Assembly (NCBI GenBank): GCA_943368755.1 | Contig: CALRLO020000010.1 | Location: 420 to 64,419 of the forward strand | Direction of reading: 5' to 3' | Source of the DNA: Synechococcus sp. UW140 | Lineage (GTDB): Bacteria > Pseudomonadota > Gammaproteobacteria > Burkholderiales > Burkholderiaceae_C | Length of the DNA: 64,000 nt | In this document: positions 8,043 through 42,297 of the stretch, piece after piece | Position numbering within the stretch: position 1 is the stretch's first letter | Layout of the letters: each line of letters starts with the position of its first letter | Position numbers and translations under genes: made by a program | Notes under the pieces: generated by a model | What the model saw: only the letters and a program-made list of their open reading frames with translations | Told to the model about the DNA's origin: nothing | The model's database searches: none

Positions 8043-8122
8043 GGGGTGGCGGCCAGACGAGGTTTTGGGAGAACCGCTAGTGTGCCGGGATCGCCGGCTG
8101 TTGCGGTGCAGCAAGTATTCTA

Positions 8123-8134
8123 TCTTATATAAGA
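8123..8134. promoter_or_regulatory. Perfect palindrome TCTTATATAAGA, candidate transcription-factor operator
   Basis: 12-bp AT-rich perfect dyad in the divergent DUF3579/argD intergenic region. Confidence 0.6.
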
Positions 8135-8260
8135 CTTAGGCATGGCTGCAGGCATTGCAGTGATGCCGAATTGTCATCCAGACCGCAAGGGGCGTGGTTC
8201 TAGAATGTCACTTCAACGGCCCCACTCTCGTTGGGCCGCTTTCTTTTGTCGGAGACCTGA

Positions 8261-9463
8261 ATGACCGCTTTCATCGAAGCCGCCTCGCCGCATGTCATGA
8301 ACACCTATGGCCGCGTGCCCATTGCGCTGTCGCATGGCCGAGGCAGCCGCGTGTGGGACGTGAACGGCAAGGAGTACCTGGACGCGCTGGGCGGCATTGC
8401 GGTCAACACCCTGGGTCACGCCCACCCAAAGCTGGTGCCGGCGCTGCAGGACCAGGTGGCCAAGCTCATCCACAGCAGCAACTACTACCACGTGCCCAAC
8501 CAGGAGGTGCTGGCCCGAAAGCTGGTGGAGCTCTCCGGCATGACCAACGTGTTCTTCTGCAGCACCGGCCTGGAAGCCAACGAGGCCGCACTCAAGCTGG
8601 CGCGCAAATACGGCCACGACAAGGGCATCACTCAGCCGAAGATCGTGGTCTATGAAAAGGCCTTCCATGGCCGCTCCATCGCCACGCTGTCGGCCACGGG
8701 CAACCCCAAGGTGCAGGCCGGCTTCGGCCCGCTGGTGGAAGGTTTCATCCGCGTGCCGCTCAACGACATCGAGGCGCTGAAACAGGCCACCGAAGGCGAC
8801 GGGGACGTGGTGGCCGTGTTCTTCGAGACCATCCAGGGCGAAGGAGGCGTGAACCCCATGCGCGTCGAATACCTCCAGCAGGTACGCAAACTGTGCGACC
8901 AGCGCGGCTGGCTGCTGATGATCGACGAGGTGCAGTGTGGCGTGGGCCGGACCGGCAAGTGGTTCGCCCACCAGTGGGCCGGCATCGTGCCCGACGTGAT
9001 GCCCCTGGCCAAGGGCCTGGGCTCGGGCGTGCCCATTGGCGCGGTGGTGGCTGGCCCCAAGGCAGCCCACATCTTTCAGCCCGGTAACCACGGCACCACC
9101 TTCGGCGGCAACCCGCTGGCCATGCGTGCCGGCGTGGAGACGCTGCGCATCATGGAAGAGGACGGCCTGCTGGACAACGCCGCGCAGGTGGGCGCCCACC
9201 TGCGCGCCGCGCTGGAGCGCGAGCTGGGCGGCCAATCCGGCCTGAAAGAGATTCGCGGTCAGGGCCTGATGCTCGGTGTGGAGCTGACCCAGCCTTGTGG
9301 CGTGCTGGTGGGCCGTGCGGCCGAAGCCGGCCTGCTGATCAGCGTCACCGCCGACAGCGTGATACGCCTGGTGCCGCCGCTGATCCTCACCCGCGCCGAA
9401 GCGGACGAGATCGTTGCCAAGCTGGTGCCGCTGGTGAAAGCCTTCTGGAAGGAGCAGCCATGA
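8261..9463 (+). CDS. argD: Acetylornithine aminotransferase
   Basis: FHGRS, ETIQGEGG, DEVQCGVGRTG, LAKGLGSG, HGTTFGGNP; TAGAAT -10 candidate at 8201-8206. Confidence 0.93.
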   Translation: MTAFIEAASPHVMNTYGRVPIALSHGRGSRVWDVNGKEYLDALGGIAVNTLGHAHPKLVPALQDQVAKLIHSSNYYHVPNQEVLARKLVELSGMTNVFFCSTGLEANEAALKLARKYGHDKGITQPKIVVYEKAFHGRSIATLSATGNPKVQAGFGPLVEGFIRVPLNDIEALKQATEGDGDVVAVFFETIQGEGGVNPMRVEYLQQVRKLCDQRGWLLMIDEVQCGVGRTGKWFAHQWAGIVPDVMPLAKGLGSGVPIGAVVAGPKAAHIFQPGNHGTTFGGNPLAMRAGVETLRIMEEDGLLDNAAQVGAHLRAALERELGGQSGLKEIRGQGLMLGVELTQPCGVLVGRAAEAGLLISVTADSVIRLVPPLILTRAEADEIVAKLVPLVKAFWKEQP

Positions 9464-10384: not shown

Positions 10385-10732
10385 ATGTCCGCCTGTCAGA
10401 CCTGTGGTGCGTGCTGCGCCTGCTTCCGGGTCGATTTCTCGGTTCACGAGGTCGATGAGGAAGGTGGCAGCGTCCCCTCGGGTCTGGTGGTCGAGGTCAA
10501 TGACAGCCTGCGGCGCATGCGGGGCACCGACCATGCCTTACCCCGTTGCGCTGCACTGACTGGCAAGGTCGGCCAGCAAGCGAGCTGCGGCATCTACGAA
10601 TGGCGCCCCTCGCCCTGCCGCGAGTTTGAAGAGGGCAGCGACGCCTGCGAACGCGCCCGCGCGCGCCACGGCCTGAGCGCGCTCACGGCGTTGCGGGCAA
10701 CGGCACCGGCAGCCCCCCCAGCCGGCCCTTGA
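10385..10732 (+). CDS. YkgJ family (CxxCxxCC) zinc/iron-chelating protein
   Basis: CQTCGACCACF, CAAL, CGIYEWRPSPCREF. Confidence 0.85.
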   Translation: MSACQTCGACCACFRVDFSVHEVDEEGGSVPSGLVVEVNDSLRRMRGTDHALPRCAALTGKVGQQASCGIYEWRPSPCREFEEGSDACERARARHGLSALTALRATAPAAPPAGP

Positions 10733-11162
10733 ACTCCTGCAGCGAGAAGTGCGACTGCACGTGCCGAACGCCCGGCAGCCGGTGCAGCTTTTGCTGCAAC
10801 AGGCTGGAATAGTGGTCCAGGTCGCGCGCCACCACCGCAATGAGGAAGTCCGACGGGCCCGAGATCGCGTGGAACATGACCACCTCGGGAATCTGGGCCA
10901 CCGCTTCCTCGAACGCCTGCGACACCGGTTCGTTCTGGTGATCAATGCCCACCAGCACAAATGACAACACGCCATAGCCCAGCGAACGGCGGTCCAGTGC
11001 TGCGTGATAGCCACGTATCACGCCCTCTTCTTCGAGGCGGCGGATGCGCCGCCAGGCCGGTGATTGCGACAGGTGCGCAACCTGCGCGAGTTCGCCCGAG
11101 GTCAGCCGGGCGTCGTCCTGCATGGCGCGCAGCAGCAAACGGTCGGTACGGTCGATTTCCAT
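10683..11162 (-). CDS. Lrp/AsnC family regulator, KynR-like
   Basis: DARL..ELA...LSQSPAWRRIRRLEEEGVIRGY HTH; divergent from kynB; GAGG SD. Confidence 0.88.
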   Translation of the reverse strand: MEIDRTDRLLLRAMQDDARLTSGELAQVAHLSQSPAWRRIRRLEEEGVIRGYHAALDRRSLGYGVLSFVLVGIDHQNEPVSQAFEEAVAQIPEVVMFHAISGPSDFLIAVVARDLDHYSSLLQQKLHRLPGVRHVQSHFSLQEFKGRLGGLPVPLPATP

Positions 11163-11274
11163 TGCGTCCTCACCCCATTTTTGGGCTATTGATGCATAAA
11201 TTATCCAATTTTTTACGCATTCAAGCCTAACTGTTCAGACTCCCTAGAATCCAGCAAATAGCCCGAACCCGACC

Positions 11275-11913
11275 ATGCCAGCCACGTCGCCCCGCCTCTG
11301 GGACATTTCGCCCCCGGTACACACCGCCAGCCCGGTGTTCCCCGGTGACACGCCCTACAGCCAGCAATGGGCCGCCTCCATAGGCCCCGGCTGTCCGGTC
11401 AACGTCAGCGCCATCACGCTCTCGCCGCACGTGGGTGCCCATGCCGATGCGCCACTGCACTACGACCCGCAGGGCCTGCCCATTGGCGAAGTGCCGCTGG
11501 ACGCTTTCATCGGCCCCTGCCGGGTGATTCACGCCATAGCTTGCCGGCCGCTGGTGGAATGGCACCACATCGCCCACGCCACACAAGGCTTGCCGCCGCG
11601 CGTGCTGGTACGCACCTACACCCACATGCCGCAAGACCGCTGGGACGGCGCGCTGGCCGGCTACGCCCCGCAAGTAGTGGAGCGTTTCGCCGCACTGGGC
11701 GTGAAGCTCATCGGCATAGACACCGCCAGCATCGACCCCGCCGAGAGCAAGACGCTGGACAGCCACCAGGTGATACGGCGGCACGGCATGCGGGTACTGG
11801 AGAATCTCGTGCTCGACGACGTGCCCGAAGGCGACTACGAACTCATTGCCCTGCCCCTCAAACTGACCCAGGCCGACGCCAGCCCCGTGCGCGCCGTCCT
11901 GCGCGACCTCTGA
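11275..11913 (+). CDS. kynB: Kynurenine formamidase (arylformamidase)
   Basis: [11 protein letters not shown] metal motif, [32 protein letters not shown]; TAGAAT -10 candidate at 11245-11250. Confidence 0.93.
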
Positions 11914-11934
11914 TTTTTTGCAACGGAAGCCCCC

Positions 11935-13140
11935 ATGACGACCTCTCTGTTCTCGCACGTGCCCGCCTACGGCGGCGACCCCATCCTCACCCTGATGGAA
12001 ACCTTCCAGAAGGATGCGCGCCCCAACAAGGTCAGCCTGTCCATTGGCATCTACTTCGATGAAGAAGGCCGCCTGCCGGTGCTCGAATCGGTGCGCCGCG
12101 CCGAAGCCTCCGGGCTGGAGAAGATCGGCCCGCGCCCCTACCTGCCCATGGAAGGCGCCGCCGCTTACCGCAACGCGGTGCAAATGCTGGTGTTCGGTGC
12201 CGAGCACGAAGCCGTGGCAAGTGGCCGCATCGCCACCCTGCAGAGCCTGGGCGGCTCGGGCGCGCTCAAGGTGGGCGCCGATTTTCTCAAGCGCTACTTC
12301 GACAGCTCGGAAGTCTGGGTCAGCGACCCGACCTGGGAGAACCACGTCGCCCTGTTCGAAGGTGCCGGCTTCAAGGTCCACACCTACCCCTATTACGACG
12401 CCAAGACCGGCGGCCTGCGTTTCGACGAGATGGTCGCCGCCTTCAAGGCCTTGCCGGCACGCAGCATCGTGCTGCTGCACGCCAGCTGCCACAACCCGAC
12501 GGGCGTGGACCTGACCCAGTCCCAGTGGCAGCAGCTCATTCCCGTCATCGCCGAGCGCGGACTGATCCCCTTCGTGGACATGGCCTACCAGGGCTTCGGC
12601 GACGGCCTCGCCGAAGACGCCTTCTCCATCCGCGCGCTCGCCAGCGCCGGCGTGCAGTTCTTCGTGGCCAACTCGTTCTCCAAGAACTTCTCCCTCTACG
12701 GTGAACGCTGCGGCGGCCTGCATGTGGTCTGTGCCGACGCGGCTGCCGCCGACACGGTGCTGGGCCAGCTCAAGGCCACAGTGCGCCGCAACTACTCCAG
12801 CCCGCCCACGCACGGCGAGGTGGTCATCACCAAAGTGCTGTCCGATCCAGAGCTGTTCGCGCTGTGGCAAAAAGAGCTGGCCGAGATGCGAGAGCGCATC
12901 AAGGCCATGCGCGAAGGCTTGCACCGGGTGCTGAACGAGCACTTCAAGGGCGCGCGCAACTTCGACTACTTCCTGACCCAGCGTGGCATGTTCAGCTACA
13001 CCGGCCTCAGCGCCGCGCAGGTGGACACCCTGCGCGACCAGCACGCGGTGTACCTGGTGCGTTCGGGCCGCATGTGCATGTCGGGCCTGAGCACCCAGAA
13101 TGTGGGCTACGTGGCCAACGCCATGGCCCAGGTGCTCTGA
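11935..13140 (+). CDS. Class I PLP aminotransferase of AspC/TyrB type; candidate kynurenine aminotransferase
   Basis: [42 protein letters not shown] (PLP Lys), SGRM; does not resemble kynureninase. Confidence 0.9.
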
Positions 13141-13163
13141 CCCCAGTTCCGGAGCGCCCGCAC

Positions 13164-14033
13164 ATGTGCCCCCACGCCCACGGCAGCACGCCCGCCTCGG
13201 TGCCCGAGTCCATCGTGCACGAGGAAAAGGCACAGCTGGATTTCAGCCGCAGCATGAGCTACGGCGACTATCTCCAGCTCGACCAGATCCTCAACGCGCA
13301 GCAGCCCCGCTCGCCCGCACACGACGAACTGCTGTTCATCGTTCAGCACCAGACCAGCGAACTCTGGATGAAGCTGATGCTGCACGAGCTGCGCGGTGCC
13401 ATCCGCAACGTCGCCAACGACGAGCTGGGCGCCGCCTTCAAGATGCTGGCGCGCGTGAGCCGCATCATGGAGCAGCTGGTGCATGCCTGGGACGTGCTCT
13501 CCACCATGACACCGCCCGAGTACAGCGCCATGCGGCCCTACCTGGGCGCCTCCAGCGGCTTCCAGAGCTACCAGTACCGTTGCATCGAGTACTCGCTGGG
13601 CAACAAGAACCCGGCCATGCTCAAACCCCACGAGCACCGACCCGACCTGCTGGCGCTGGTGCGCGAGTCCTTCGACGCGCCCTCGCTGTACGACGAATCG
13701 CTGCGCCTGCTGGCACGCCGGGGCATCGCCGTTCCCGCCGAGTACCTGGAGCGCGACTGGAGCCAGCCCTATGTGGCCAGCGACGCGGTGGAACAGGCCT
13801 GGCTCACCGTCTACCGCAACCCCAAGGAATACTGGGACCTCTACCAGCTGGGCGAGGAACTGACCGACCTGGAAGACGCCTTCCGCCTCTGGCGCTTCCG
13901 CCACGTGACCACGGTGGAACGCGTGATCGGCTTCAAGCGCGGCACCGGTGGTACCGGTGGCGTGAGCTACCTGCGCAAGATGCTGGACGTGGTGCTGTTC
14001 CCCGAAATCTGGAAACTCCGGACGGACCTGTAA
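13164..14033 (+). CDS. kynA: Tryptophan 2,3-dioxygenase
   Basis: [50 protein letters not shown]. Confidence 0.95.
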
Positions 14034-14039
14034 CCCACC

Positions 14040-14119
14040 CCCGCGCCGCGCCTGCGGCGCGTCACCCCATCAAGGGGGCAACATCAGCAGGCCGGCAAAG
14101 CCGGCTCTGCGATGTTCCC
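14040..14119. repeat. Intergenic three-hairpin repeat (REP/MITE-like), copy 2
   Basis: cgcgccgc/gcggcgcg, cccc/gggg and aacatc-a-gcagg-ccggc/gccgg-c-tctgc-gatgtt; homologous to 2371-2451. Confidence 0.8.
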
Positions 14120-14151
14120 TGTCAAGCCGCTGCCACGTGGCGACTGTGGGT

Positions 14152-15141
14152 TCACTGCGGTTTGATGTTCGCCTTCTGGATCACCGCCGCCATCTTGGTG
14201 GTGTCCGCCTTGATGCGATTGCCCAGCCCCTCGGGCGAGGTGCCCGCCACCTGCCAGCCCTGCGTGAAGATGCGCTGACGGATTTCCGGATCGCGCACGA
14301 TGTCGGCCAGCAGGCCCGACACCTTGCTCACCACCGGCTTGGGCAGGCTGTTGGGCGCGGCCACCGCGTTCCAGATCTCCAGCTGGAAGCCCTTGATGCC
14401 GCCCTCGGCCACACTGGGCACGTTGGGCACCAGCGAGCTGCGGCCCAGCGAGGTGACGCCCACCGCCTTGAGCTTGCCCGCCGACACCTGCGCCATGGCC
14501 AGGCCCGGCGGCAGCAGCGACAGCTGCACATCCCCCGCCACCATGGCCGTGATCACCTGCGGGTTGCCCTGGTAAGGCACGTGCACCGCCTCGATGCCAG
14601 CGGTGGATTTCAGCAGCTCCATGCCGATGTGTGCCACCGTCCCAATGCCGGGCGTGCCGTAGTTCCACTTGCCACCGGCCGCCCGCGCCGCCGCCAGCAT
14701 GCCCGGCACATCGCCCGGCACCGAGGCCGCCGCCGCCAGGACCAGGGGCGCAGTGGCCAGCAGCGATACCGGCTGCAGGTCCTTCAGCGGGTCGTAGGTG
14801 GTGGCCGGGTTCAGGATCTTTGCGATGGTCAGGTTGCCATTGATCATCAGCCCCAGCGTGTGGTCATCGGTGGCGCGTGACACCAGGTCGGCGGCCACGT
14901 TGCCACCCGCACCGGGGCGGTTCTCCACCACCACAGGCTGGCCCAGCGCCTTGGCCAGAGGCTCGGCAATGGTGCGGGCCATCAGGTCCGGCGACGAGCC
15001 GCCGGGAAAGCCGACGATGAGGCGCACCGGCTTGGTGGGCCAGGCGCCGCCCTGCGCCCAGGCGCCGGACAACGCGAGTGCGGCTGCAAGGCCGATGGTG
15101 GACTGGATCACGAGGCGGCGGGAGGGTTTGGACTGGGTCAT
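14152..15141 (-). CDS. Bug/TctC family solute-binding protein
   Basis: IVGFPGGSSPD..AR, VENRPGAGG, YGTPG.G, HVPYQG. Confidence 0.9.
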   Translation of the reverse strand: MTQSKPSRRLVIQSTIGLAAALALSGAWAQGGAWPTKPVRLIVGFPGGSSPDLMARTIAEPLAKALGQPVVVENRPGAGGNVAADLVSRATDDHTLGLMINGNLTIAKILNPATTYDPLKDLQPVSLLATAPLVLAAAASVPGDVPGMLAAARAAGGKWNYGTPGIGTVAHIGMELLKSTAGIEAVHVPYQGNPQVITAMVAGDVQLSLLPPGLAMAQVSAGKLKAVGVTSLGRSSLVPNVPSVAEGGIKGFQLEIWNAVAAPNSLPKPVVSKVSGLLADIVRDPEIRQRIFTQGWQVAGTSPEGLGNRIKADTTKMAAVIQKANIKPQ

Positions 15142-15295
15142 GGCGCGTCTGTGGAAACGTTGGCGGGAAAGTTGGAACCGGCAACCTTAACCGATGCCCA
15201 TCAGATTTCCCCATGGTTTAAAAAGTATCAAAAACAGCATAATCGTTAGCCATCGAAGGCAAGCAACGCCCACAAATTTCAGCGAAAGGCCAGAC

Positions 15296-16003
15296 ATGGG
15301 TATCCAGGATCGCGACTACTGGCGGGAGTGGCACCGGGAACGGGAAGACAGCAACGGATTTCGCCGCCGGCCACCCGAGCCCCCAGGCGCGCAATGGCAC
15401 TGGAGCCTCAAAGTCTTGGTCTGGCTGCTGATTGCCGGGACCCTGTTCGCGGTATTCAAGCGCGTTGAACCGCGTCGCAACACCCCACGCCCGGCCGCCG
15501 CTTCCACGCAGGACTCGCCGACACCCACACAACCGCCATGGCCTGCAGCGCCATCGCCGTCGCAGACATTTCAGCCACCCCACTCTGGATACGCCCTACC
15601 CGCACCAGCCCCTACACCAGCACCCATTCCATCACGGGTCACCATCTATCTATGCAAGGACTACAGCGGCGGGATGTTCTGGGCATCCAACCACTGCAGC
15701 CAGCACCGTGCGTTGATCGACCGTATGGAATCGGTACCCAGCAACCTGCCCTGGGACCAGCAGGTGCTTCTGGCCCAACAGGCGCGCAACCGGGCTGCCG
15801 AATTGACCAGACCACCGCCCGTGATGGAAAGCCGCACAGTTATCGTGAATAACATGGGGAATACCGCAGCCTGCGAAGCTCTGGAGCAGCACATCGTTCA
15901 TCTGGATGCGATGGCGCGCCAGCCGCAGAGCGCGCAGATGCAGGACTGGATCAAGGCGCAGAAAGCGGATGCGCGGAGCCAGCAGTTCAGGTTGAGGTGT
16001 TGA
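15296..16003 (+). CDS. Hypothetical single-pass membrane protein with Pro-rich linker and Cys-containing C-terminal domain
   Basis: MGIQDRDYW start with GAAAGG upstream, one hydrophobic helix, P/S/T-rich linker, four Cys including a terminal Cys. Confidence 0.7.
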   Translation: MGIQDRDYWREWHREREDSNGFRRRPPEPPGAQWHWSLKVLVWLLIAGTLFAVFKRVEPRRNTPRPAAASTQDSPTPTQPPWPAAPSPSQTFQPPHSGYALPAPAPTPAPIPSRVTIYLCKDYSGGMFWASNHCSQHRALIDRMESVPSNLPWDQQVLLAQQARNRAAELTRPPPVMESRTVIVNNMGNTAACEALEQHIVHLDAMARQPQSAQMQDWIKAQKADARSQQFRLRC

Positions 16004-16170: not shown

Positions 16171-17055
16171 TCACCTTGCGGCGCTGGCAAGCAGCGAAAT
16201 CAGGCGCTTTGCAACAGGTGGCACATAGCTGTTTTCTCGGTAGGTGACGACAAGACGCCGGTGCATGGTGGCTTCTTTGACAGGCACCTCTCTGAGTTGT
16301 GAACTTGTGGTCGCTTGGTCCAGATGATGTCTGGAAATGAAGCTCAGCAAGCCCGTCTCGGCAATGAGCGTAGGAAGCATCAGCAACATGGTGCTTTCCA
16401 CCTGCACCCGAGGGCGAGGCAGTTGTTTGCGATCAAAAGTATGGTCCAACCAGTCGCGGGTCGGTGCACCAGGGGGTTGCAGGACCCAGCGGTACCGGGT
16501 CAGGTCACGCAGGGTCGGCTTGATGTTGTGAATTTCGTGTCCGACGCTGGCTGCCACGACGATGGTGTCGGCGGTCAAGACCTGTGAAACGAATCCCGAC
16601 TCTTCGGCACCCTCCGTTCCCACCATCAGGTCGATTTCACCTGCGCGCAATAGTGGGCGAAGCGTGTCCACCAGCCCGACCACTGTTTTCATGGTGACCT
16701 CTGGTGCCTCGGCCATCAACTCGCGGGCAGCATTCGGCAGCAGGAACTGCGCTGCGGTGGGAACAATGCCCAGGCGGATATGGCCCGACAGTCCAAGGCC
16801 GATATCGCCAATTTCCCGCCTGGCGTCGTCCATGTCAAATCGCATCCGCTGTGCCCATTTCTGCAGCACCCGACCCGCCGCCGTGAGACGGATACCCCGG
16901 CCATCCTTCTCAAAAAGTGGCGCACCACACTCTTCTTCCAGCCGGCGTATGCAACTGGTCAGCGCAGGCTGGGTGCGGTGCAGGCGCCGGGTGGCCTGAC
17001 CGATGTGTTCCAGCTCGGCGATAGTCTCGAAGTAGCGGAGGTCGCGCAGGTCCAT
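16171..17055 (-). CDS. LysR family transcriptional regulator
   Basis: MDLRDLRYF...HRTQPALTSCIRRLEEECGAPLF HTH; divergent from the catabolic cluster. Confidence 0.92.
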   Translation of the reverse strand: MDLRDLRYFETIAELEHIGQATRRLHRTQPALTSCIRRLEEECGAPLFEKDGRGIRLTAAGRVLQKWAQRMRFDMDDARREIGDIGLGLSGHIRLGIVPTAAQFLLPNAARELMAEAPEVTMKTVVGLVDTLRPLLRAGEIDLMVGTEGAEESGFVSQVLTADTIVVAASVGHEIHNIKPTLRDLTRYRWVLQPPGAPTRDWLDHTFDRKQLPRPRVQVESTMLLMLPTLIAETGLLSFISRHHLDQATTSSQLREVPVKEATMHRRLVVTYRENSYVPPVAKRLISLLASAAR

Positions 17056-17068
17056 ACCAAAAGTCAGA

Positions 17069-17082
17069 TTGATGAATATCAA
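17069..17082. promoter_or_regulatory. Candidate LysR-binding dyad
   Basis: TTGAT-gaat-ATCAA just upstream of lysR; contains T-N11-A. Confidence 0.45.
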
Positions 17083-17183
17083 GAAATAATCGATTGGACT
17101 GTAAGTGTTCGGCCCGGAATACTCAAGCCCACAAACGGGATGCCTGCGCGGTTGCAGGGAACCCAAAGCACTGGAGACAACCC

Positions 17184-18158
17184 ATGAACCTGCGCCTGAC
17201 CCGCCGCGCCCTGATCGCTCTGACCGTCACAACCTTTGCAGCCGGTGCCAGCGCCCAGGCATTCCCCAACAAGCCCATCCGCGTGGTCGTGCCTTTCCCT
17301 GCCGGCGGCGGTACCGACGTGATTGCCCGCGAAGTCACGCAGAAAGTGACCGCCACCACGGGATGGACTTTCGTGATCGAGAACAAGGCGGGCGCGGGGG
17401 GCAACATCGGTGTGGACGCCGCAGTCAAATCGCCGGCAGACGGCTACACCATCGTGCTGGGGCAGACCAGCAACCTGGCCATCAACGCCACGCTGTACGA
17501 CAAGATGCCGTACGACTCGCAAAAGGATCTGGCCCCCATCGTTCTGGTGGCCAATGCCCCCCTGGTGGTGGTCACCAGCAGTGCCTCGACTTTCAAGACG
17601 CTGGGCGACGTGCTGAAAGCGGCCAAGGCCAAGCCCGGCGCGGTGAACTACGCGACCTCAGGCAACGGCACCGTGGCACACCTGACCATGGAGCTGTTCC
17701 AGAACGCCGCGGCCACCAAGCTGCAGCACGTGCCCTACAAAGGCGCCGCTCAGGCCATGACCGATGTGGTCAGCGGCAACGTGGAGCTCTACACCTCCTC
17801 CGTGCCAACACTCCTGGGCCAGATCAAGCAGGGCAAGCTGCGCGCGCTGGCCGTCACGTCGGCCAACCGCGTGGACGACCTGCCCGAGGTGCCCACGATC
17901 AACGAATCGGGCTTCAAGGGATTTGACGCTGTGACATGGTTCGGCTTCCTGGCGCCCGCCGGTACGCCCAAGGATGTGGTGGCCCGGCTCAACGCTGAGT
18001 TCAACAAGGCCCTTTCACAGGCCGATCTGCGCAAGAAGCTGGGTGACCAGGGCGCCGAGCCCGTGGGCGGAACCCCCGAGCAGTTCGCGTCACTCATCAA
18101 GGACGAGATCGGGCGCTGGGGCAAGGTCGTCAAGGAATCGGGCGCGCGCAACGAGTGA
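17184..18158 (+). CDS. Bug/TctC family solute-binding protein
   Basis: VVPFPAGGGTD, ENKAGAGG, HVPYKG; GGAG SD. Confidence 0.92.
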   Translation: MNLRLTRRALIALTVTTFAAGASAQAFPNKPIRVVVPFPAGGGTDVIAREVTQKVTATTGWTFVIENKAGAGGNIGVDAAVKSPADGYTIVLGQTSNLAINATLYDKMPYDSQKDLAPIVLVANAPLVVVTSSASTFKTLGDVLKAAKAKPGAVNYATSGNGTVAHLTMELFQNAAATKLQHVPYKGAAQAMTDVVSGNVELYTSSVPTLLGQIKQGKLRALAVTSANRVDDLPEVPTINESGFKGFDAVTWFGFLAPAGTPKDVVARLNAEFNKALSQADLRKKLGDQGAEPVGGTPEQFASLIKDEIGRWGKVVKESGARNE

Positions 18159-18232
18159 AGCCAGGCGCCGCAGGCGCCACCCCATTCAACCCCCGCCAGC
18201 CCGAGCGCTGGCCATTCATCAGGAGATCTTTC

Positions 18233-18931
18233 ATGGGTCAAGCCGCTGCATTGCCCGATGTCATCCGGGACTTCGAACGGGTCGATGCCACCACCGTGGC
18301 AAAGGCCGCCGTGTTTCCATCGTCCATCCTGGCCGACGTGGCCGGTCGCCGTGGGGCGCTGAGCGGCCGTATCGCCCCGCTGGCGCCGACCATGCGGTTT
18401 GCCGGGCCGGCGCTGACGGTCGAAGTCCGTCCGGGCGACAACCTGATGATCCATGCCGCCATGGCGCTCGCGAAGCCGGGCGACGTGATCCTGGTTGACG
18501 GCAAAGGCGACCTGAGCAGCGCCCTGATGGGCGAGATCATGTCGCAGCAATGTGTGGCGCTGGGCGTGGCCGCCGTGGTGATCGATGGCGCGGTGCGCGA
18601 CAGCGAAGCCATCCGCGAGCTGGGCTTCCCGATGTACGCCGCCGGCCTCAACCCGAACGGCCCCACCAAATCGGTGGCGGGCCGGGTGAACCACCCCATT
18701 TCCATCGGCGGCGTGACGGTCAATCCGGGGGACCTGGTGGTGGGTGACGCCGATGGTGTGACCGTGATCGAACGCGCCAAGGCGGCCGCGATGTTGCCGC
18801 TGGCACACGAGAAGGTGGCCGCAGAGACCAAGCGCATCGCGCAGATCAAGAGCCGCGAGGCCCTGGCACCGTCCTGGCTGGGTGCAGCCCTGCGCGCCGC
18901 CGGCGTGCTCAAGGAAGGGGAGACGCTGTGA
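18233..18931 (+). CDS. RraA family / HMG-CHA aldolase-like protein
   Basis: GPALTV, GDNL, PGDVILVD, IDGAVRD, V.PGDLVVGDADGV; AGGAG SD. Confidence 0.85.
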   Translation: MGQAAALPDVIRDFERVDATTVAKAAVFPSSILADVAGRRGALSGRIAPLAPTMRFAGPALTVEVRPGDNLMIHAAMALAKPGDVILVDGKGDLSSALMGEIMSQQCVALGVAAVVIDGAVRDSEAIRELGFPMYAAGLNPNGPTKSVAGRVNHPISIGGVTVNPGDLVVGDADGVTVIERAKAAAMLPLAHEKVAAETKRIAQIKSREALAPSWLGAALRAAGVLKEGETL

Positions 18932-19848
18932 GCAAGCGCCCTGTATTGCTGGTAACGGCCGCAGATCTGGCTCCGCAGGCCCTGGCCTTGCTGACCGAGT
19001 TCGACGTCGTGTACGCGGGCAAGACGCCCACCGAGGAAGACGTCATTGCCTTGTGCCGGCAGCACGACCCTGTGGCCATCATCGTGAGGTACAGCAAGGT
19101 CGGTGCAGCCGCCATGGACGCGGCGCCCAGCCTGCGCGTCATCTCCAAGCACGGCAGCGGCACCGATACCATCGACAAACAGGCTGCGGCCGCACGTGGT
19201 ATCCAGGTGGTGGCGGCCGTGGGCGCCAACGCAGCAGCGGTGGCGGAGCAGGCGCTGGCGCTGTTGCTGGCCTGTGCCAAGTCGGTGGTCACCCTGGACC
19301 GGCGCATGCACGCCGGGCATTGGGACAAGTCCACGCACAAGAGCATCGAGCTCGAGGGCCGCACGGTGGGTGTGGTGGGTCTGGGTGCGATTGGCTTGCG
19401 CTTTGCCAAGGTTGCCGATGCGATGGGCATGCGGGTACTGGGTTTCGACCCTTACGCCCATCAGTTGCCGGAGTTCATTCGGTCTGTTGACCTGGACACC
19501 ATCTGGCGGGAGTCAGACGCCATTTCATTGCATTGCCCACTGACACCCGACAACGCTCAACTGATCAACGCCACCACCCTGGCCGCATGCAAGCGCGGTG
19601 TGCTCATCGTCAACACCGCACGCGGCGGGCTGATTGATGAGGCGGCTTTGCTCTCGGCCGTGAAGTCCGGACACGTGGGCAGTGCCGGACTCGACAGCTT
19701 CGTCGTGGAGCCCATGACCGCGCCGCACCCCTTCCACGGCGAAGATGGCATCGTGCTCAGCCCGCATATTGGCGGCGTGACGGCTGACGCCTACGTCAAG
19801 ATGGGCGTTGCAGCTGCAAAAAATGCACTTGCGGTGCTCAACGGGTGA
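18928..19848 (+). CDS. D-isomer-specific 2-hydroxyacid dehydrogenase
   Basis: GVVGLGAIG, SLHCPLT, NTARGGLIDE, SPHIGG; GTGA overlap with the aldolase gene. Confidence 0.9.
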   Translation: MSKRPVLLVTAADLAPQALALLTEFDVVYAGKTPTEEDVIALCRQHDPVAIIVRYSKVGAAAMDAAPSLRVISKHGSGTDTIDKQAAAARGIQVVAAVGANAAAVAEQALALLLACAKSVVTLDRRMHAGHWDKSTHKSIELEGRTVGVVGLGAIGLRFAKVADAMGMRVLGFDPYAHQLPEFIRSVDLDTIWRESDAISLHCPLTPDNAQLINATTLAACKRGVLIVNTARGGLIDEAALLSAVKSGHVGSAGLDSFVVEPMTAPHPFHGEDGIVLSPHIGGVTADAYVKMGVAAAKNALAVLNG

Positions 19849-19854
19849 ACCACC

Positions 19855-20919
19855 ATGACCCGGCGTTGGAAACAATCACCGCCAGGCGCTCACTGGGGCG
19901 AGTTTGGTGACGACGACCAGCGGGGTCGCATGAACCTCGTGACCCCCGCCAAGGTGCTGGAGGGCATCGCCGAAGTTCGTACAGGACGCACCTTCTGCCT
20001 GTCGCTTCCGCTGGACGTTCCCGGTGGCACCGCGCTCAACCCGCGGCGCCAGCCGCCCCAGCGTTTTGCGGTGCTGCGGGATGGCAGGAGCGCCGGGCAG
20101 CAAGGGTTCTGCTGGTCTTACGCCAGCGAAGACCCGGAACTCACCGACGTTGTCAACGACGACGTGGTGCTGATGAGCTTGCAATACTCGACGCAGTGGG
20201 ACAGCCTGGCTCACATCGGCGCCCATTTCGATGCAGACGGCGACGGGGTTGCTGAGGCGGTGTTCTACAACGGCTACCGGGCGGGCCACGATATCCGACC
20301 AGGCATCGAGAACGCGCAAGCAGCAAACGCCTATGCCCGTTTCCCCGGCCCTCAGGCGGATGCCCTTGGCATAGAGCACCTGGCAGAACATGGTGTTCAA
20401 GGCCGCGGCGTGATGGTGGACCTCGAACATCACGTTGGGCGAGTACGCACTGCAGTCGGCTACGACCAGCTGATGCGGATTCTGGACGCCGACAAGGTCG
20501 AGATAGAGCCAGGTGACATGGTGTGCCTGCACACCGGTTTTGCCGATACCTTGCTGGCCATGAACCGGTCACCCGACCTCAACCGCCTGCATCAGACGGG
20601 TAGTGGGCTGGATGGATGGGACCAGAAGCTGCTGAACTGGATTGTGGACACCCGCCTTGCCTGCCTGCTGGCAGACAACCCGGCGGTGGAATTGGTCGTC
20701 CCCAAGCTGACGACCCCATCCCCCATGCGCAGGCCACGGCTGCCACTGCACGAGCACTGCCTCTTCAAAAACGGCATACCCCTAGGCGAACTCTGGTACC
20801 TGACGGCACTGGCCGTCTGGTTGCGTGTCAACCAGCGAACGCGCTTTTTGCTCACCGCTCCGCCGCTGCGTTTGCCTGGCGCGGTGGGCTCACCGGCGAC
20901 ACCCATCGCCACCGTTTGA
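19855..20919 (+). CDS. Cyclase family (KynB-like fold) metal-dependent hydrolase
   Basis: WGEFGDDDQRGRMNL start, QYSTQWDSLAH, GRGVMVD, GIPLGELWYL, PPLRLPGAVGSPATP. Confidence 0.8.
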   Translation: MTRRWKQSPPGAHWGEFGDDDQRGRMNLVTPAKVLEGIAEVRTGRTFCLSLPLDVPGGTALNPRRQPPQRFAVLRDGRSAGQQGFCWSYASEDPELTDVVNDDVVLMSLQYSTQWDSLAHIGAHFDADGDGVAEAVFYNGYRAGHDIRPGIENAQAANAYARFPGPQADALGIEHLAEHGVQGRGVMVDLEHHVGRVRTAVGYDQLMRILDADKVEIEPGDMVCLHTGFADTLLAMNRSPDLNRLHQTGSGLDGWDQKLLNWIVDTRLACLLADNPAVELVVPKLTTPSPMRRPRLPLHEHCLFKNGIPLGELWYLTALAVWLRVNQRTRFLLTAPPLRLPGAVGSPATPIATV

Positions 20920-20969
20920 ACGCCGCACTTCAATCACCCTGCAAATCGAAAAGAGAAGGAGACAGAAAT

Positions 20970-21935
20970 ATGAATAGGCGATGGACCCGTGTGGTCGTGG
21001 CGAGCCTTGCGGCAACGTTCACACTTTGCGCTCAGGCAGCCTGGCCAGAGAAGCCCGTAAAGCTGGTGGTTCCCTATGCTGCAGGAGGCGCTGCTGATGC
21101 CTTGGCCAGAGTGGTGGCAACCGAACTCGGCGCGAGGCTCCAACAGCAAGTTGTGGTGGAAAACAAGGGCGGAGCCGGCGGAACCATTGGGGCGCAAGCG
21201 GTAGCACAGGCACCGGCAGACGGCTATACCTTTCTCTATGACGCGACGTCTTTTGCGGTCAATCCCAGCCTGTTTCCCAAGCTGACCTTCAGCTACACAA
21301 AGGACTTCGTTCCCATTTCCATGGTGGCCCGGATCCCGACGCTGCTGGTTGTTCCCGCAGCGTCTCCCGCCAACTCGGTTGCAGACCTGGTGCGTCTGGC
21401 GCGCGCCAATCCAGGCAAGCTGTCGTACGCGTCGGCTGGCAATGGTGGTGCTGCCCATCTGAGTGGCGAGCTGTTCAAGCAAGGGCACCGCATCTTTATT
21501 CTGCATGTCCCATACAAGGGCGGCGCGCCAGCACTGACCGACTTGACGGGAGGGCAGGTTGACATGATGTTCAGCGCCGTGACGGCTTCAGGCCCCCTGG
21601 TGAAATCAGGGCGACTCAAGGCCATCGCGACCGCATTTGACAGGCGAATCGAATCCATGCCGGACGTGCCCACCGTCGCGGAGGCTGGCCTGCCCGGATT
21701 CAGCGCGTACGAATGGAACGCTATCTTTGCGCCCAAAGGCACGCCAGCGGATGTCGTCAACCGCATGGAAACGGAAATGCGCAGCGTGCTGTCTGCCCCT
21801 TCAGTACGCGAACGCTTGTCCGCCATGGGTGCTCTGCCCGCAACGGGTGGCGCGAAGGAGCTGGGGGCATTTGTCGAGGCTGAAAGTGCCAAATGGGCCT
21901 CTGTCATCAAAACATCGGGCATCAAACTGGACTGA
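20970..21935 (+). CDS. Bug/TctC family solute-binding protein
   Basis: VVPYAAGGAAD, ENKGGAGG, HVPYKGG; AGGAG SD. Confidence 0.92.
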   Translation: MNRRWTRVVVASLAATFTLCAQAAWPEKPVKLVVPYAAGGAADALARVVATELGARLQQQVVVENKGGAGGTIGAQAVAQAPADGYTFLYDATSFAVNPSLFPKLTFSYTKDFVPISMVARIPTLLVVPAASPANSVADLVRLARANPGKLSYASAGNGGAAHLSGELFKQGHRIFILHVPYKGGAPALTDLTGGQVDMMFSAVTASGPLVKSGRLKAIATAFDRRIESMPDVPTVAEAGLPGFSAYEWNAIFAPKGTPADVVNRMETEMRSVLSAPSVRERLSAMGALPATGGAKELGAFVEAESAKWASVIKTSGIKLD

Positions 21936-21957
21936 ACCGATTCTCAAGGAGACACGC

Positions 21958-22914
21958 ATGAAACGTTCGATTCTCGCCACGCTGGCCGTGCTGGCGGCCA
22001 CATCCGGTTTGGCCCAGGGCTGGCCCAGCAAACCCGTCAAGATCATCGTTCCATATCCGCCTGGAGGTGCGGTAGATGTGGTCACGCGACGCATGGCGAC
22101 CAAGCTGCAGGAGCAGACCGGGCAAACCTTTTTTGTCGAAAACAAGGCTGGCGCCACAGGAACGATTGGCATCAGTCAGACGGTGCAATCCACGCCTGAC
22201 GGCTACACGCTGGTGGCCAACGACACCACGTACGCACTGTTGCCTCACATCTTCAAGAAGCTGCCTTTCGACCACGAAAAAGACCTGCTCCCGTTGGGGG
22301 CCTACATGTTCGCGCCCATGGCCGTGGTGGTGCGCAACGAATCGCCCTTCAAGACTCTGGATGACCTGCTGCGGGCAGGCAAAGCAGAACCCAACAAAAT
22401 CACCTACGGCACGGGCGGCGCAGGGACCATGCCCCACTTTGCGAGTGAAGCCCTGGGGATTGCCACAGGTGTGAACTTCATGCACGTCCCTTTCAAGGGT
22501 GCAGGTGAAGCCACCCTGGCCTTGCTGGGTGGAACGATTGACTACCAGATCGCCTCTACGCCCGGCATCATCGGCCAGGTCAAAGGCGGCAAGGCGCGCC
22601 TTCTGGCTGTCAGCGGTGACAAGCGGCCCAGCGCATTGTCCAACGTGCCAACCTTCACCGAGGCCGGTATCAAAGGCTACGGCGTGGTGAACTTCACAGG
22701 GCTGTGGGCGCCGAAAGGAACGCCAGCCGAGGTCGGGGAGCGTCTGCAGAAGGAAATTGCCACGGCCATGGCCAGTGCCGACATGAAAGCCTATGCCGAG
22801 AGCATTGGCGCCGAGGCCGGCGCCTGGGATGCCGCCACCTTCGCCCGGAACCTGGCCGAGCGCACCGCCTACTGGGGCAAGGTGGCCGCCAACACCAGCT
22901 TCGACCGCCAATAA
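21958..22914 (+). CDS. Bug/TctC family solute-binding protein
   Basis: IVPYPPGGAVD, ENKAGATG, HVPFKG; AGGAG SD. Confidence 0.92.
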   Translation: MKRSILATLAVLAATSGLAQGWPSKPVKIIVPYPPGGAVDVVTRRMATKLQEQTGQTFFVENKAGATGTIGISQTVQSTPDGYTLVANDTTYALLPHIFKKLPFDHEKDLLPLGAYMFAPMAVVVRNESPFKTLDDLLRAGKAEPNKITYGTGGAGTMPHFASEALGIATGVNFMHVPFKGAGEATLALLGGTIDYQIASTPGIIGQVKGGKARLLAVSGDKRPSALSNVPTFTEAGIKGYGVVNFTGLWAPKGTPAEVGERLQKEIATAMASADMKAYAESIGAEAGAWDAATFARNLAERTAYWGKVAANTSFDRQ

Positions 22915-22922
22915 GGCCGCGC

Positions 22923-23852: not shown

Positions 23853-23888
23853 AGTGAGCGATTGACGTCGGTCGGAAAACCGTCCCGT

Positions 23889-25061: not shown

Positions 25062-25122
25062 GGGCGTCGATTGTGCCCGGCGGGGGTGCCACAATGGTCC
25101 GTCATCGCAACCGGAGCCCGCC

Positions 25123-25503
25123 ATGGATCAGGAAGCCTTCAACCAGTCGCTGTTTCTCACGGCCCGTCTGGTCGACCGCGGTGACTACGTGGATGCCGCG
25201 ATCGCGCTGCGCCCGTGGCTGGAGACCGACCTGGACGCCAAGGGAAAAGCCATCGTCTGCATCAACCTGGCGGTGTGCTGCGAACACCAGAAGGACTACG
25301 AGAGGGCACTGGCCTGGTACGAGCACGGCACCCACCATGCCCTCGTGTTCGCCGGGGAGCACAAGGCCGCCCTGCTCTACCGGCTGGGCCGCAAGGCGGA
25401 TGCGTTGGCCACCTACCGCCGCCTGCTGCCCGAAATCCTCACGCCCGAGGAGCGAACGCGCATACAGACCAACGTGGATACGCTGGTCAAAGAATGCGGT
25501 TGA
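25123..25503 (+). CDS. Small TPR-like protein
   Basis: Helical repeats (DYERALAWYE, KAALLYRLGRKADALATYRRLL); GGAG SD; CACAAT at 25090-25095. Confidence 0.65.
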   Translation: MDQEAFNQSLFLTARLVDRGDYVDAAIALRPWLETDLDAKGKAIVCINLAVCCEHQKDYERALAWYEHGTHHALVFAGEHKAALLYRLGRKADALATYRRLLPEILTPEERTRIQTNVDTLVKECG

Positions 25504-37241: not shown

Positions 37242-37255
37242 AGGAACCGGGTAGT

Positions 37256-39378: not shown

Positions 39379-39640
39379 GGTTTCCTCATGTGTAGGTGCA
39401 GACGAGCTGCAATCGAAAAATGACGTCTGAAGTGACCACCACTTGAAACGCTGCTTTTGATTGTGCCACAACCGCCTGACCCGCCCCAGGGCTGGGCGCG
39501 ACGCAATACGGGCGGTGCACGCTTTGACGGCCCCGGCTGTTGTTCATGCACCACAACGAGGCCTGGGCAGGCCCCAGGCGGGATGTGGGTTGGCGCCCAC
39601 TAAAATGGCAGATTGCGTTCCGACAACCCGCACCCTCTCC

Positions 39641-42297
<2,657 letters not shown>

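Follow-up and report, generated by a model that had tools for sequence, protein, structure and literature searches.

Which end product does a tryptophan-breakdown operon yield when kynU is missing from it and an aminotransferase gene stands between kynB and kynA? The question is raised by a freshwater Comamonadaceae bacterium with the operon kynB-aminotransferase-kynA, which we analyzed in a 64-kb stretch of its DNA (hereafter, the window). Kynurenate is a bioactive compound (a ligand of AhR and GPR35 and a metal chelator), and we know of no dedicated bacterial gene that has been tied to its formation. Bacterial kynurenate formation is documented, for example, for P. aeruginosa, where the flux rises strongly upon deletion of kynU, and comparative genomics was stated to have found no genetic support for the quinoline branch (PMC4938989). 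The results described below suggest, with about even chances of being right or wrong, that the kynureninase-less Comamonadaceae locus, with the unit kynB-tyrB(AT)-kynA (AT, aminotransferase), leads from tryptophan to kynurenate via an ordinary TyrB and was derived by loss of kynU.

Gene content and organization of the locus

An earlier note on this DNA had described an Lrp gene divergent from kynB, followed by a class I aminotransferase gene and kynA, with gaps of 21 and 23 bp, and the open reading frames and coordinates confirmed this layout (Table 1). The gaps (11914-11934 between kynB and the aminotransferase gene, 13141-13163 between the latter and kynA) each contain a GGA(A/G) ribosome-binding site. 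The kynA reading frame had been listed with a GTG start at 12864; the conserved start is the ATG at 13164 ('ATGTGCCCCCACGCCCA'), which is identical in the Hydrogenophaga locus L005. The model NF006719 in Table 1 is named 'aromatic amino acid transaminase'. At its 3' end, the regulator gene overlaps by 50 bp with a convergent CxxCxxCC gene (10385-10732). An assembly artifact at the kynB-aminotransferase junction is ruled out: its sequence recurs unchanged in independent Logan contigs (three runs, two studies), and the order of the genes is shared by a related strain (95-97% identity). The organism was found in algal and protist culture metagenomes.

Table 1. Features of the kynB-aminotransferase-kynA locus (positions in the window)
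Feature	Position	Strand	Description
Lrp/AsnC-family regulator (KynR-like by position)	10683-11162	minus	159 aa; PF01037 2.8e-20, HTH_24 2.5e-16
Candidate operator, imperfect palindrome TGCATAAATTATCCAAT	11193-11209		within the 112-bp divergent intergenic region 11163-11274
kynB, kynurenine (aryl)formamidase	11275-11913	+	212 aa; TIGR03035 307.6 bits, cut-off 223; model positions 1-206 of 206; Pfam Cyclase
TyrB-type (subfamily Ialpha) aromatic amino acid aminotransferase	11935-13140	+	401 aa; PF00155 1.4e-77; NF006719 572.9 bits, cut-off 377
kynA, tryptophan 2,3-dioxygenase	13164-14033	+	TIGR03036 433.4 bits, cut-off 390.7; model positions 1-264 of 264
Two GC-rich hairpins, kynA/TctC convergent spacer	14042-14061, 14080-14116	+	RNA fold 14030-14150: -66.8 kcal/mol, z = -4.66 vs shuffles

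The note had also claimed that no remnant of kynU is present, and this was borne out within the 64-kb window: a tblastn search of the whole window with a Hydrogenophaga KynU gave a best E value of 3.3, with no match in the region 10.6-14.1 kb. The sole Aminotran_5 protein in a Pfam survey of the window is SerC (42298-43389, between gyrA and pheA), which was not matched by KynU. One low-depth X1 contig contained kynU-like patches; it is assignable to no particular genome. The locus resembles the canonical kynB-kynU-kynA operon with its Lrp-type KynR (P. aeruginosa; Ralstonia, Cupriavidus) in its equivalog-level KynA and KynB and in its divergent Lrp/AsnC regulator of about 159 aa. It differs in that, of the kynBUA genes of the anthranilate pathway, kynA and kynB are present whereas kynU was absent from the operon and from the 64-kb window; a TyrB-type aminotransferase gene stands in the place of kynU, and the predicted product is kynurenate, not anthranilate and alanine.

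Regulator, candidate operator and transcription unit

By its position divergent from kynB, the Lrp/AsnC protein is KynR-like. It is 64-76% identical to the Lrps encoded beside kynBUA, AT-RidA, or permease-AT-kynA in Comamonadaceae and Pusillimonas, and orthologs with 68-76% identity precede canonical kynB-kynU-kynA operons in three metagenome loci (L095, L130, and L163), compared with only 35% identity to the kynBUA-linked Lrp of Ralstonia. The candidate operator belongs to a palindrome family with the approximate consensus TGGATAAnTTATCCAA. In Comamonadaceae loci, the palindrome precedes the regulator start by about 30-45 bp, irrespective of whether kynB, a permease gene, or the aminotransferase gene comes first, and some of the sites have diverged and fall under the PWM threshold. 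The site at 11193-11209 is the sole one at or above the threshold in the 64-kb window, a descriptive result, as the PWM was built with that site included. The same regulator ortholog and palindrome are found before kynBUA, AT-RidA-permease, and merged units.

The hairpins downstream of kynA probably mark the end of the transcript; a simple terminator scan missed them because they have no T-tract. Terminator-like calls inside kynB-AT-kynA were all located within coding sequence and were no more common than in shuffled sequences. Low-depth contigs from libraries labelled as RNA-Seq, in which carry-over of DNA is possible, span the aminotransferase-kynA junction (13066-13262, 100% identical), and a 94%-identical low-depth contig from such a library, with the same possible carry-over, spans kynB and the aminotransferase gene.

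Gene orders in related species

The kynR/kynB-kynU-kynA arrangement, which had been taken as the usual one, does predominate in close relatives: the canonical kynU-kynA order was found in 53 of 57 related KynA-centered metagenome loci, so that the arrangement in the window is rare. The locus shares its chromosomal slot with the canonical kynBUA of a Ramlibacter locus (L091) and with L095. The latter, which is syntenic on both sides, has the order argF-CxxC-Lrp(-)-kynB-kynU-kynA-TctC(-), with kynU in the slot of the aminotransferase gene; compared with it, the contig of the window organism omits 1344 bp and has 1274 different letters instead. In the nearest relatives, Hydrogenophaga, the order is Lrp(-)/kynB-kynU-AT-kynA (aminotransferase 86-88% and KynA 88-89% identical), with kynU confirmed by TIGR01814 (317 bits). 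The proposal that kynureninase was replaced by the aminotransferase therefore holds as far as position is concerned, judged from L095, but not as a recruitment: a TyrB ortholog that was inherited vertically (see below) and that Hydrogenophaga has together with kynU makes the window look like a case of kynU loss. According to this scenario, kynU would have been lost from a Hydrogenophaga-like kynB-kynU-AT-kynA order, and the remaining aminotransferase would be an ordinary TyrB, not a specialized paralog.

Loss of kynU also happens without the aminotransferase, as three relatives (L132, L140, and L169) have kynB-kynA with neither gene at the same chromosomal site, and a fourth (L101) has kynA only. 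Such plasticity would also suit a decaying locus, in which kynU was deleted, the operon only makes kynurenine or heads for loss, and the aminotransferase is a bystander from the kynB-kynU-AT-kynA ancestor. We regard decay as very improbable, because kynB, the aminotransferase gene, and kynA are all intact and full length compared with curated models, the junction is clean and contains a ribosome-binding site, and the kynU-less order kynB-AT-kynA is retained in Ottowia (aminotransferase 85% identical) as well as in the strain with 95-97% identity.

In an aminotransferase-centered survey, kynA and/or kynB were found at most 6 kb from the aminotransferase gene in 16 of the 21 distinct loci of the Comamonadaceae/Pusillimonas clade. 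These 16 loci represent at least six gene orders, and nine of them have no kynU in the locus; outside this clade, none of 61 orthologous aminotransferase loci had kyn genes. Across Comamonadaceae, the aminotransferase gene is often accompanied by a RidA gene and permease genes and is repeatedly linked to kynA/kynB. Loci of Variovorax ureilyticus, Pusillimonas, and Burkholderiaceae plasmids have kynA directly beside an aminotransferase gene, without kynB or kynU. An independent kynA-AT-RidA module is found on plasmids of B. thailandensis and P. graminis; its aminotransferase is a deep-branching member of the TyrB family (only 54.7% identical). As far as gene order can tell, the recurrent linkage under one orthologous Lrp, together with the independent plasmid module, speaks for a genuine functional link, the simplest being the conversion of kynurenine to kynurenate. 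The aminotransferase is no general alternative to kynureninase, since both genes are present together in Hydrogenophaga, Comamonas, and Delftia loci.

Family, substrate pocket and phylogeny of the aminotransferase

The best PDB matches of the aminotransferase are the TyrB entries 4wd2 (562 bits) and 3tat (534 bits), compared with about 353 bits for AspC; the score against mitochondrial AspAT is about 316 bits. The enzyme thus belongs to TyrB subfamily Ialpha, being above the model cut-off and closer to TyrB than to AspC. With residues numbered according to an E. coli AspC sequence, which is consistent with the motifs, the catalytic and substrate-binding residues K258, D222, Y225, N194, W140, Y70, R292, and R386 are all conserved. 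Positions 39, 41, 47, 69, 109, and 297, which we take to be those of the AspC-to-TyrB hexamutant and to govern aromatic specificity, are occupied by I39, F41, L47, P69, S109, and S297. Five of the six are TyrB-like, position 69 being Pro instead of Leu, and the enzyme shares these specificity positions and all catalytic residues with E. coli TyrB. The tree of the aminotransferase mirrors the species tree, and in the alignment comparison no pocket residue set the kyn-linked enzymes apart from unlinked orthologs. Judged by these comparisons, the enzyme is a vertically inherited TyrB ortholog of its lineage, not a newly recruited specialist, and it shows no sequence specialization relative to housekeeping orthologs; the comparisons give no support to the 'dedicated' pathway of the earlier note.

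Mammalian kynurenine aminotransferase (KAT) IV is mitochondrial AspAT. In bacteria, E. coli AspC is a kynurenine aminotransferase according to Han et al. (2001), as cited in PMC4938989. The suggestion that the enzyme is of the AspC/TyrB class, members of which transaminate kynurenine, is therefore supported: it is of the TyrB type (Ialpha) and is homologous to these proven KATs (PMC4938989) over the full length, and it would catalyze the reaction that they do (kynurenine and a 2-oxo acid to kynurenate). AspC and mitochondrial AspAT are promiscuous housekeeping enzymes that are not encoded together with tryptophan 2,3-dioxygenase (TDO) or formamidase, whereas the gene in the window is in a predicted operon with both. 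P. aeruginosa PhhC, which is essential for aromatic amino acid catabolism (PMC4938989), offers an earlier example of a TyrB-type enzyme that is catabolic and encoded within an operon. In contrast to PhhC and E. coli TyrB, the enzyme of the window is encoded under an Lrp-type regulator, with kynB and kynA on either side and no tyrR or phh context. The broad aromatic aminotransferases Aro8/Aro9 of yeast likewise double as kynurenine aminotransferases and direct the breakdown of Trp toward kynurenate (PMC5610271), but they are eukaryotic enzymes of another aminotransferase subfamily and are not encoded in operons.

The aminotransferase could use Trp, Phe, or Tyr in place of kynurenine. The serC-pheA-tyrA-aroA operon of the window contains no HisC-type aminotransferase gene (pheA and tyrA overlap, with none in between), so that the enzyme may also have a housekeeping, biosynthetic role in aromatic amino acid metabolism. 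It is unlikely, if by no means far-fetched, that it is the single housekeeping TyrB, serving Phe/Tyr biosynthesis and/or catabolism, that two modules for aromatic amino acids, Lrp/permease-AT-RidA and kynBUA, have merged in Comamonadaceae, and that kynU is located elsewhere, with Trp carbon flowing to anthranilate. The species-tree topology and the unspecialized pocket would fit such a role, as would the presence of the aminotransferase and kynU together in several genera, the wide distribution of KynU within the family, and units without kyn genes, namely Lrp/permease-AT in Burkholderiaceae and Lrp/AT-RidA-permease in some Comamonadaceae. However, a biosynthetic enzyme would have odd regulation here, with its gene 21 and 23 bp from the catabolic genes on either side and an Lrp-type pathway regulator in control. 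Co-regulation of parallel pathways also fits poorly with the loci of Variovorax ureilyticus, Pusillimonas, and the Burkholderiaceae plasmids (the last with a different aminotransferase lineage), where kynA alone is beside the aminotransferase gene. If the housekeeping role were the whole explanation, the locus would merely be an unusual genomic address of tyrB.

TyrB-type enzymes also accept Trp, and there is a small chance that the enzyme converts Trp itself to indole-3-pyruvate, alongside KynA or in competition with it, as a step toward catabolism or auxin-type products; transamination of Trp had been the alternative raised in the earlier note. The kyn-free Lrp/AT-RidA-permease units would suit a module for amino acid uptake and transamination, and exchange of Trp for indole-3-acetate is common in algal and protist cultures such as those in whose metagenomes the host occurs, a link that we infer. 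Yet the window ORFs scanned included neither a gene for indolepyruvate decarboxylase nor any other downstream gene, and stoichiometric co-expression with the kynurenine branch is a simpler explanation for a position between kynB and kynA.

Predicted pathway and comparison with known quinoline routes

Based on gene content, the operon probably yields kynurenic acid and not anthranilate as its end product. The regulator would bind the palindrome and, if it behaves as KynR of P. aeruginosa does, respond to kynurenine or Trp. KynA would oxidize L-Trp to N-formylkynurenine, from which KynB would release formate and L-kynurenine. As the operon lacks a kynureninase gene, the TyrB-type aminotransferase with its broad specificity would move the alpha-amino group of kynurenine to 2-oxoglutarate, yielding glutamate, and the resulting 2-oxo acid would cyclize spontaneously to kynurenate. 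Per Trp, the cell would gain one amino nitrogen and formate. The kynurenate may be excreted or may be degraded by genes beyond the window; no kynurenate catabolic genes were recognized within the 64 kb. A kynU deletion strain of P. aeruginosa overproduces kynurenate (about 100 uM; PMC4938989), showing that kynA and kynB without kynU divert flux to kynurenate through resident aminotransferases.

The quinoline pathway has the same predicted upper route, and Lrp/permease-AT-kynA-RidA clusters are found in loci of Delftia and Comamonas; the Delftia locus has kynU too. The window is devoid of recognizable kynurenate-degrading genes. The biochemical description of this pathway dates from the 1950s-60s, and Stanier and co-workers reportedly assigned it to Pseudomonas (now Delftia) acidovorans. 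The 'quinoline pathway' of pseudomonads, from Trp via kynurenine to kynurenate and beyond, is mentioned in PMC4938989, and no genes assigned to it were found in the searchable literature. Quinolobactin-type routes share the logic of TDO and formamidase followed by transamination and spontaneous cyclization to a quinoline acid. Their clusters, however, also contain siderophore genes and genes for a kynurenine monooxygenase and tailoring enzymes, and the aminotransferase of these clusters is not known to be a TyrB ortholog; no quinolobactin-type genes were found beside the operon among the ORFs scanned. In P. fluorescens, quinolobactin formation via xanthurenic acid is such a quinoline-2-carboxylate route from Trp (Matthijs et al., 2004, as cited in PMC9570651 and PMC5897657).

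If the kynurenate reading of the window is true, the annotation 'kynurenine pathway present' must separate anthranilate-forming from kynurenate-forming variants, and kynurenate may matter in the freshwater and phycosphere habitats of the host. The natural kynB-AT-kynA operon offers a concrete, cheap test system for kynurenate formation, as does the TyrB-type aminotransferase that, with RidA, travels with kynA in two Burkholderiales lineages. Tentatively, and with some doubt, we extend this reading: the genes for a TyrB-type aminotransferase, usually with those for RidA and APC permeases, together with kynA/kynB under the KynR-type regulator of Comamonadaceae might be the as yet unassigned genes of the upper quinoline pathway, from Trp to kynurenate, with the operon of the window as its minimal kynureninase-free form and the plasmid-borne kynA-AT-RidA as a mobile version. 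The B. thailandensis module adjoins genes for a Rieske oxygenase alpha subunit, an Fe-S reductase, and a Zn-dependent dehydrogenase, and these neighbors could lead to the orphan genes of kynurenate 7,8-hydroxylase and dihydrodiol dehydrogenase.

Structure of the kyn locus

The kyn locus consists of a gene for an Lrp/AsnC-family regulator and, divergent from it across an AT-rich spacer of 112 bp, kynB, a class I aminotransferase gene and kynA (table below). The gene calls and coordinates bear out this arrangement as described in the earlier note, with gaps of 21 bp between kynB and the aminotransferase gene and 23 bp between the latter and kynA, each containing a GGA(A/G) ribosome-binding site. 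The kynA ORF was listed with a GTG start at position 12864; the true start is the ATG at 13164, which is letter-for-letter identical in Hydrogenophaga. The kynB-aminotransferase junction is genuine: independent assemblies of three public runs gave contigs with the identical junction, and the gene order is unchanged in a strain with 95-97% identity to the window.

The spacing suggests co-transcription of kynB, the aminotransferase gene and kynA. Contigs from metagenome libraries labelled as RNA-Seq span both junctions, which is weak evidence, as DNA carry-over is possible. A simple scan of the kyn region found no sigma-70 promoter. The hairpins 3' of kynA probably represent the transcript end. 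Several runs, of metagenomes and of RNA, show a depth spike over 14035-14080; the spacer element occurs only once within the window, and the spike suggests a REP-like element common to many loci or organisms.

The absence of a kynU remnant, also claimed previously, holds across the whole window: tblastn with Hydrogenophaga KynU detected neither the gene nor a fragment in the 64 kb (best E = 3.3), and SerC was the only class V aminotransferase among the roughly 45 ORFs surveyed with Pfam. A candidate remnant in the 21-bp spacer was rejected; the faint likeness (TGATTTT) to the kynU-aminotransferase spacer of another scanned locus, L004, is insufficient proof of the direction in which the change took place.

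Features of the window discussed in the text
Feature	Coordinates	Strand	Remarks
CxxCxxCC-domain gene	10385-10732	+	3' end overlaps that of the regulator gene by 50 bp (10683-10732)
Lrp/AsnC-family regulator gene	10683-11162	-	intact
Palindrome	11193-11209		TGCATAAATTATCCAAT; only such site in 64 kb
kynB	11275-11913	+	TIGR03035, 308 bits
Class I aminotransferase gene	11935-13140	+	NF006719 "aromatic amino acid transaminase", 573 bits
kynA	13164-14033	+	TIGR03036, 433 bits
Convergent kynA-TctC spacer	14034-14151		two strong GC hairpins, z = -4.7 (RNA folding)
TctC/Bug-family periplasmic binding protein gene	14152-15141	-	convergent with kynA
ORF	15194-16003	+	269 aa, Pro-rich middle; no Pfam match
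Catabolic-looking cluster	16171-25124		lower GC (0.62 versus about 0.66); LysR (-), three TctC/Bug binding proteins, RraA-like aldolase, D-2-hydroxyacid dehydrogenase, 354-aa cyclase-family protein (KynB's Pfam family), SMP-30 lactonase-like protein, divergent FAD monooxygenase closest to 3-hydroxybenzoate 6-monooxygenase
ORF	37196-37960	+	254 aa; no Pfam match
gyrA-serC-pheA-tyrA-aroA/cmk-rpsA	39461-49240		
pheA	43397-44488		overlaps tyrA
tyrA	44463-45380		overlaps pheA

Distribution and origin of the gene arrangement

A scan with the aminotransferase, using one genome per species, returned 80 loci, which were typed by tblastn with the proteins of the window and with KynU, RidA and permeases of its relatives. 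The nearest relatives belong to Hydrogenophaga (aminotransferase 86-88%, KynA 88-89% identical), with the order Lrp(-)/kynB-kynU-aminotransferase-kynA. Because the extra gene encodes a kynureninase (TIGR01814, 317 bits), the aminotransferase is an additional member of the operon in Hydrogenophaga, and the window operon is the Hydrogenophaga operon minus kynU. The kynB-aminotransferase-kynA order of the window recurs in an Ottowia genome (L001; near-complete assembly GCA_047601385.1); an EamA exporter gene immediately follows kynA there.

Other orders in the Comamonadaceae/Pusillimonas clade were Lrp/(permease)-aminotransferase-RidA-kynB-kynA (L007-L009), Lrp/aminotransferase-kynA-x-RidA (Variovorax ureilyticus and Pusillimonas), Lrp/permease-aminotransferase-(kynA)-RidA-LysE-AraC-permease-kynB-kynU (Comamonas and Delftia; L025, L018-L020), aminotransferase-kynB (Acidovorax) and, lacking any kyn gene, Lrp/aminotransferase-RidA-permease (L010, L012). 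Altogether, kynA and/or kynB lie within 6 kb of the aminotransferase gene in 16 of the 21 distinct loci of the clade, nine of which have no kynU in the locus, whereas kyn genes were found at none of the 61 orthologous aminotransferase loci outside the clade. The Burkholderiaceae loci carry Lrp/permease-aminotransferase units instead, with a regulator identity of only 39-43%. In Delftia and Comamonas (L025, L018-L020), the kyn genes come with a LysE-type exporter and a pair of APC permeases. The stretch "x" between kynA and RidA is conserved over about 0.9 kb (8093-8887 in the Pusillimonas locus L052, 8003-8869 in the V. ureilyticus locus L013) and matched no family in any frame tried; it may encode a formamidase that has escaped recognition, or a different protein of the pathway.

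A metagenome scan with KynA yielded 80 further loci with 77-85% identity. Among the 57 with sufficient upstream sequence, kynU lies directly upstream of kynA in 53, in agreement with the view that kynB-kynU-kynA is the norm. Only two of all 80 loci have the aminotransferase gene directly before kynA, and in three no gene separates kynB from kynA, which shows that the window arrangement is unusual. The synteny of the metagenome locus L095 (argF-CxxC-Lrp(-)-kynB-kynU-kynA-TctC(-)) with the window extends to both sides, and the kynU of L095 stands exactly in the slot of the aminotransferase gene; in an alignment of the window organism's contigs with L095, 1344 bp (kynU) are skipped and 1274 unrelated letters stand in their place. 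Ramlibacter is also syntenic (DUF3579-argD-argF-kynB-kynU-kynA, followed by a flavoprotein and aconitase), and plain kynBUA occurs in Polaromonas, Variovorax boronicumulans and a Limnohabitans plasmid. The "replacement" of kynU proposed in the earlier note is correct with respect to position; with respect to evolution, the Hydrogenophaga form points to the loss of kynU from a four-gene operon.

The loss of kynU is recurrent in the family. At the argF-linked site, the metagenome loci L132, L140, L169 and L101 carry kynB-kynA (about 56 bp apart) or kynA alone, with neither kynU nor the aminotransferase gene. That the window harbors a decaying locus is very improbable in our view; all four genes between 10683 and 14033 are intact.

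Regulator and palindromic site

Among the loci of Comamonadaceae and Pusillimonas, the regulators are 64-76% identical, regardless of whether they precede kynB-kynU-kynA (L095, L130, L163), aminotransferase-RidA-permease or merged units. In contrast, the window regulator shares only 35% identity with the Lrp protein beside the canonical kynBUA of Ralstonia, and 35-43% with Ralstonia and Burkholderiaceae Lrp proteins in general. In the Comamonadaceae and Pusillimonas loci, whichever gene comes first, the regulator start is preceded at a distance of about 30-45 bp by an imperfect palindrome, with a family consensus of approximately TGGATAAnTTATCCAA; some sites have diverged. KynR of P. aeruginosa, as described in PMC12451312 (citing Knoten 2011), is a kynurenine-responsive Lrp/AsnC-type activator encoded by a 477-bp gene. 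The window regulator is of about equal size and of the same type, and by analogy kynurenine may be its effector, too.

Plasmid-borne kynA-aminotransferase-RidA modules

Two Burkholderiaceae plasmids carry kynA-aminotransferase-RidA. Their aminotransferase is only 54.7% identical to that of the window and branches deeper than the chromosomal Burkholderiaceae TyrB. Given this separate, deeper branch, the TDO gene was joined to a TyrB-family aminotransferase and RidA at least twice. The repeated linkage is the strongest argument that the aminotransferase acts in KynA's own pathway and not merely beside it. The module appears to be mobile, since in P. graminis (L086; NZ_CP024936.1, 5900-8600) it resides on a conjugative plasmid, where IS66 fragments and a group II intron border it. 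On the B. thailandensis plasmid (L085; NZ_CP141811.1, 1-10700), it adjoins genes for LysR, a Rieske ring-hydroxylating alpha subunit and an Fe-S reductase; further neighbors encode a DAO-type flavoprotein, an MFS transporter and a Zn-dependent dehydrogenase, which is annotated fdhA. The orphan genes for kynurenate 7,8-hydroxylase and dihydrodiol dehydrogenase could lie in this region; alternatively, the annotation as fdhA could indicate a demethylase system.

Family and descent of the aminotransferase

By its sequence, the window aminotransferase is classified as a bona fide TyrB-type (Ialpha) enzyme. The closest solved structures are TyrB 4wd2 and 3tat (562 and 534 bits, whereas E. coli AspC scores about 353 bits), the alignment shows every catalytic residue, and five of the six positions that discriminate TyrB from AspC are TyrB-like (I39, F41, L47, S109, S297; position 69 is Pro), in E. 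coli numbering, which is consistent with the motifs. A neighbor-joining tree of 88 sequences resolves Comamonadaceae, Sphaerotilaceae-like and Burkholderiaceae clades, apart from one another and from E. coli TyrB, in an order that matches the species phylogeny, so that the enzyme is a vertically inherited TyrB orthologue and not a diverged paralogue. A specialised substrate pocket was rejected, as no pocket residue separates kyn-linked from unlinked orthologues.

The vertical descent and the unspecialised pocket, together with the coexistence of the aminotransferase with kynU in several genera, favor the alternative that it is a housekeeping or general aromatic aminotransferase and that kynU is located elsewhere in the genome. 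The serC-pheA-tyrA-aroA operon of the window points in the same direction: a HisC-type gene is common at the pheA-tyrA site in other beta- and gamma-proteobacteria, but pheA and tyrA overlap here, so that no HisC-type aromatic aminotransferase lies between them, which raises the possibility that the kyn-embedded TyrB doubles as the biosynthetic enzyme. With respect to a distant kynU, contigs similar to Hydrogenophaga kynU are present in the metagenome contig sets X1-X4, but their depths do not follow that of the window organism; one unassigned contig of 3.5 kb comes close to it (8.8x versus 10.9x). None of the best 120 KynU homologues (all at least 74% identical) comes from the source contig or the Ottowia contig, a weak negative. 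On balance, we regard this alternative as rather unlikely. Action of the aminotransferase on Trp, yielding indole-3-pyruvate, is an improbable further alternative.

Proposed pathway to kynurenate

We consider the conversion of Trp via kynurenine to kynurenate by the products of kynB-aminotransferase-kynA to be the most likely mechanism, with middling confidence. KynA and KynB would convert Trp to kynurenine and formate; as the operon lacks a kynureninase, the presumably co-expressed aromatic aminotransferase would transaminate kynurenine, and the resulting keto acid would cyclise spontaneously to kynurenate. The direct benefit would be one amino nitrogen and formate. Genes for kynurenate degradation, encoding a Rieske hydroxylase, a dihydrodiol dehydrogenase or an extradiol dioxygenase, were not found in the window; kynurenate would probably be excreted or handled elsewhere. 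The cluster at 16171-25124 was rejected as evidence for degradation.

The chemistry and the enzyme family are already known. KAT IV is the mitochondrial AspAT. AspC is the kynurenine aminotransferase of E. coli according to work cited in PMC4938989, Aro8/Aro9 perform the same task in yeast (PMC5610271), and a kynU deletion strain of P. aeruginosa accumulates kynurenate to about 100 uM (PMC4938989). The classical "quinoline pathway" has also been described (mentioned in PMC4938989), as have secondary-metabolite pathways that reach quinoline acids through TDO, formamidase and an aminotransferase, for example quinolobactin via xanthurenate (Matthijs 2004, as cited in PMC9570651 and PMC5897657). 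Our literature search found no description of a primary-metabolism kyn operon with an aminotransferase in the kynU slot, nor of a single regulator under which, throughout a family, kynA/kynB are linked to RidA and a TyrB orthologue; it also found nothing on quinoline-pathway genes or on Delftia and kynurenate, the classic J. Bacteriol. papers of 1951 and 1969 being outside its range. The kynB-aminotransferase-kynA operon is easily testable.

The TctC gene downstream of kynA has a 72% identical counterpart at the matching place in L095, the syntenic locus with canonical gene content. Quinolinate and other pyridine dicarboxylates are ligands of some Bug proteins (PMC11452294); that the TctC protein of the window binds a Trp-derived carboxylate is pure speculation.
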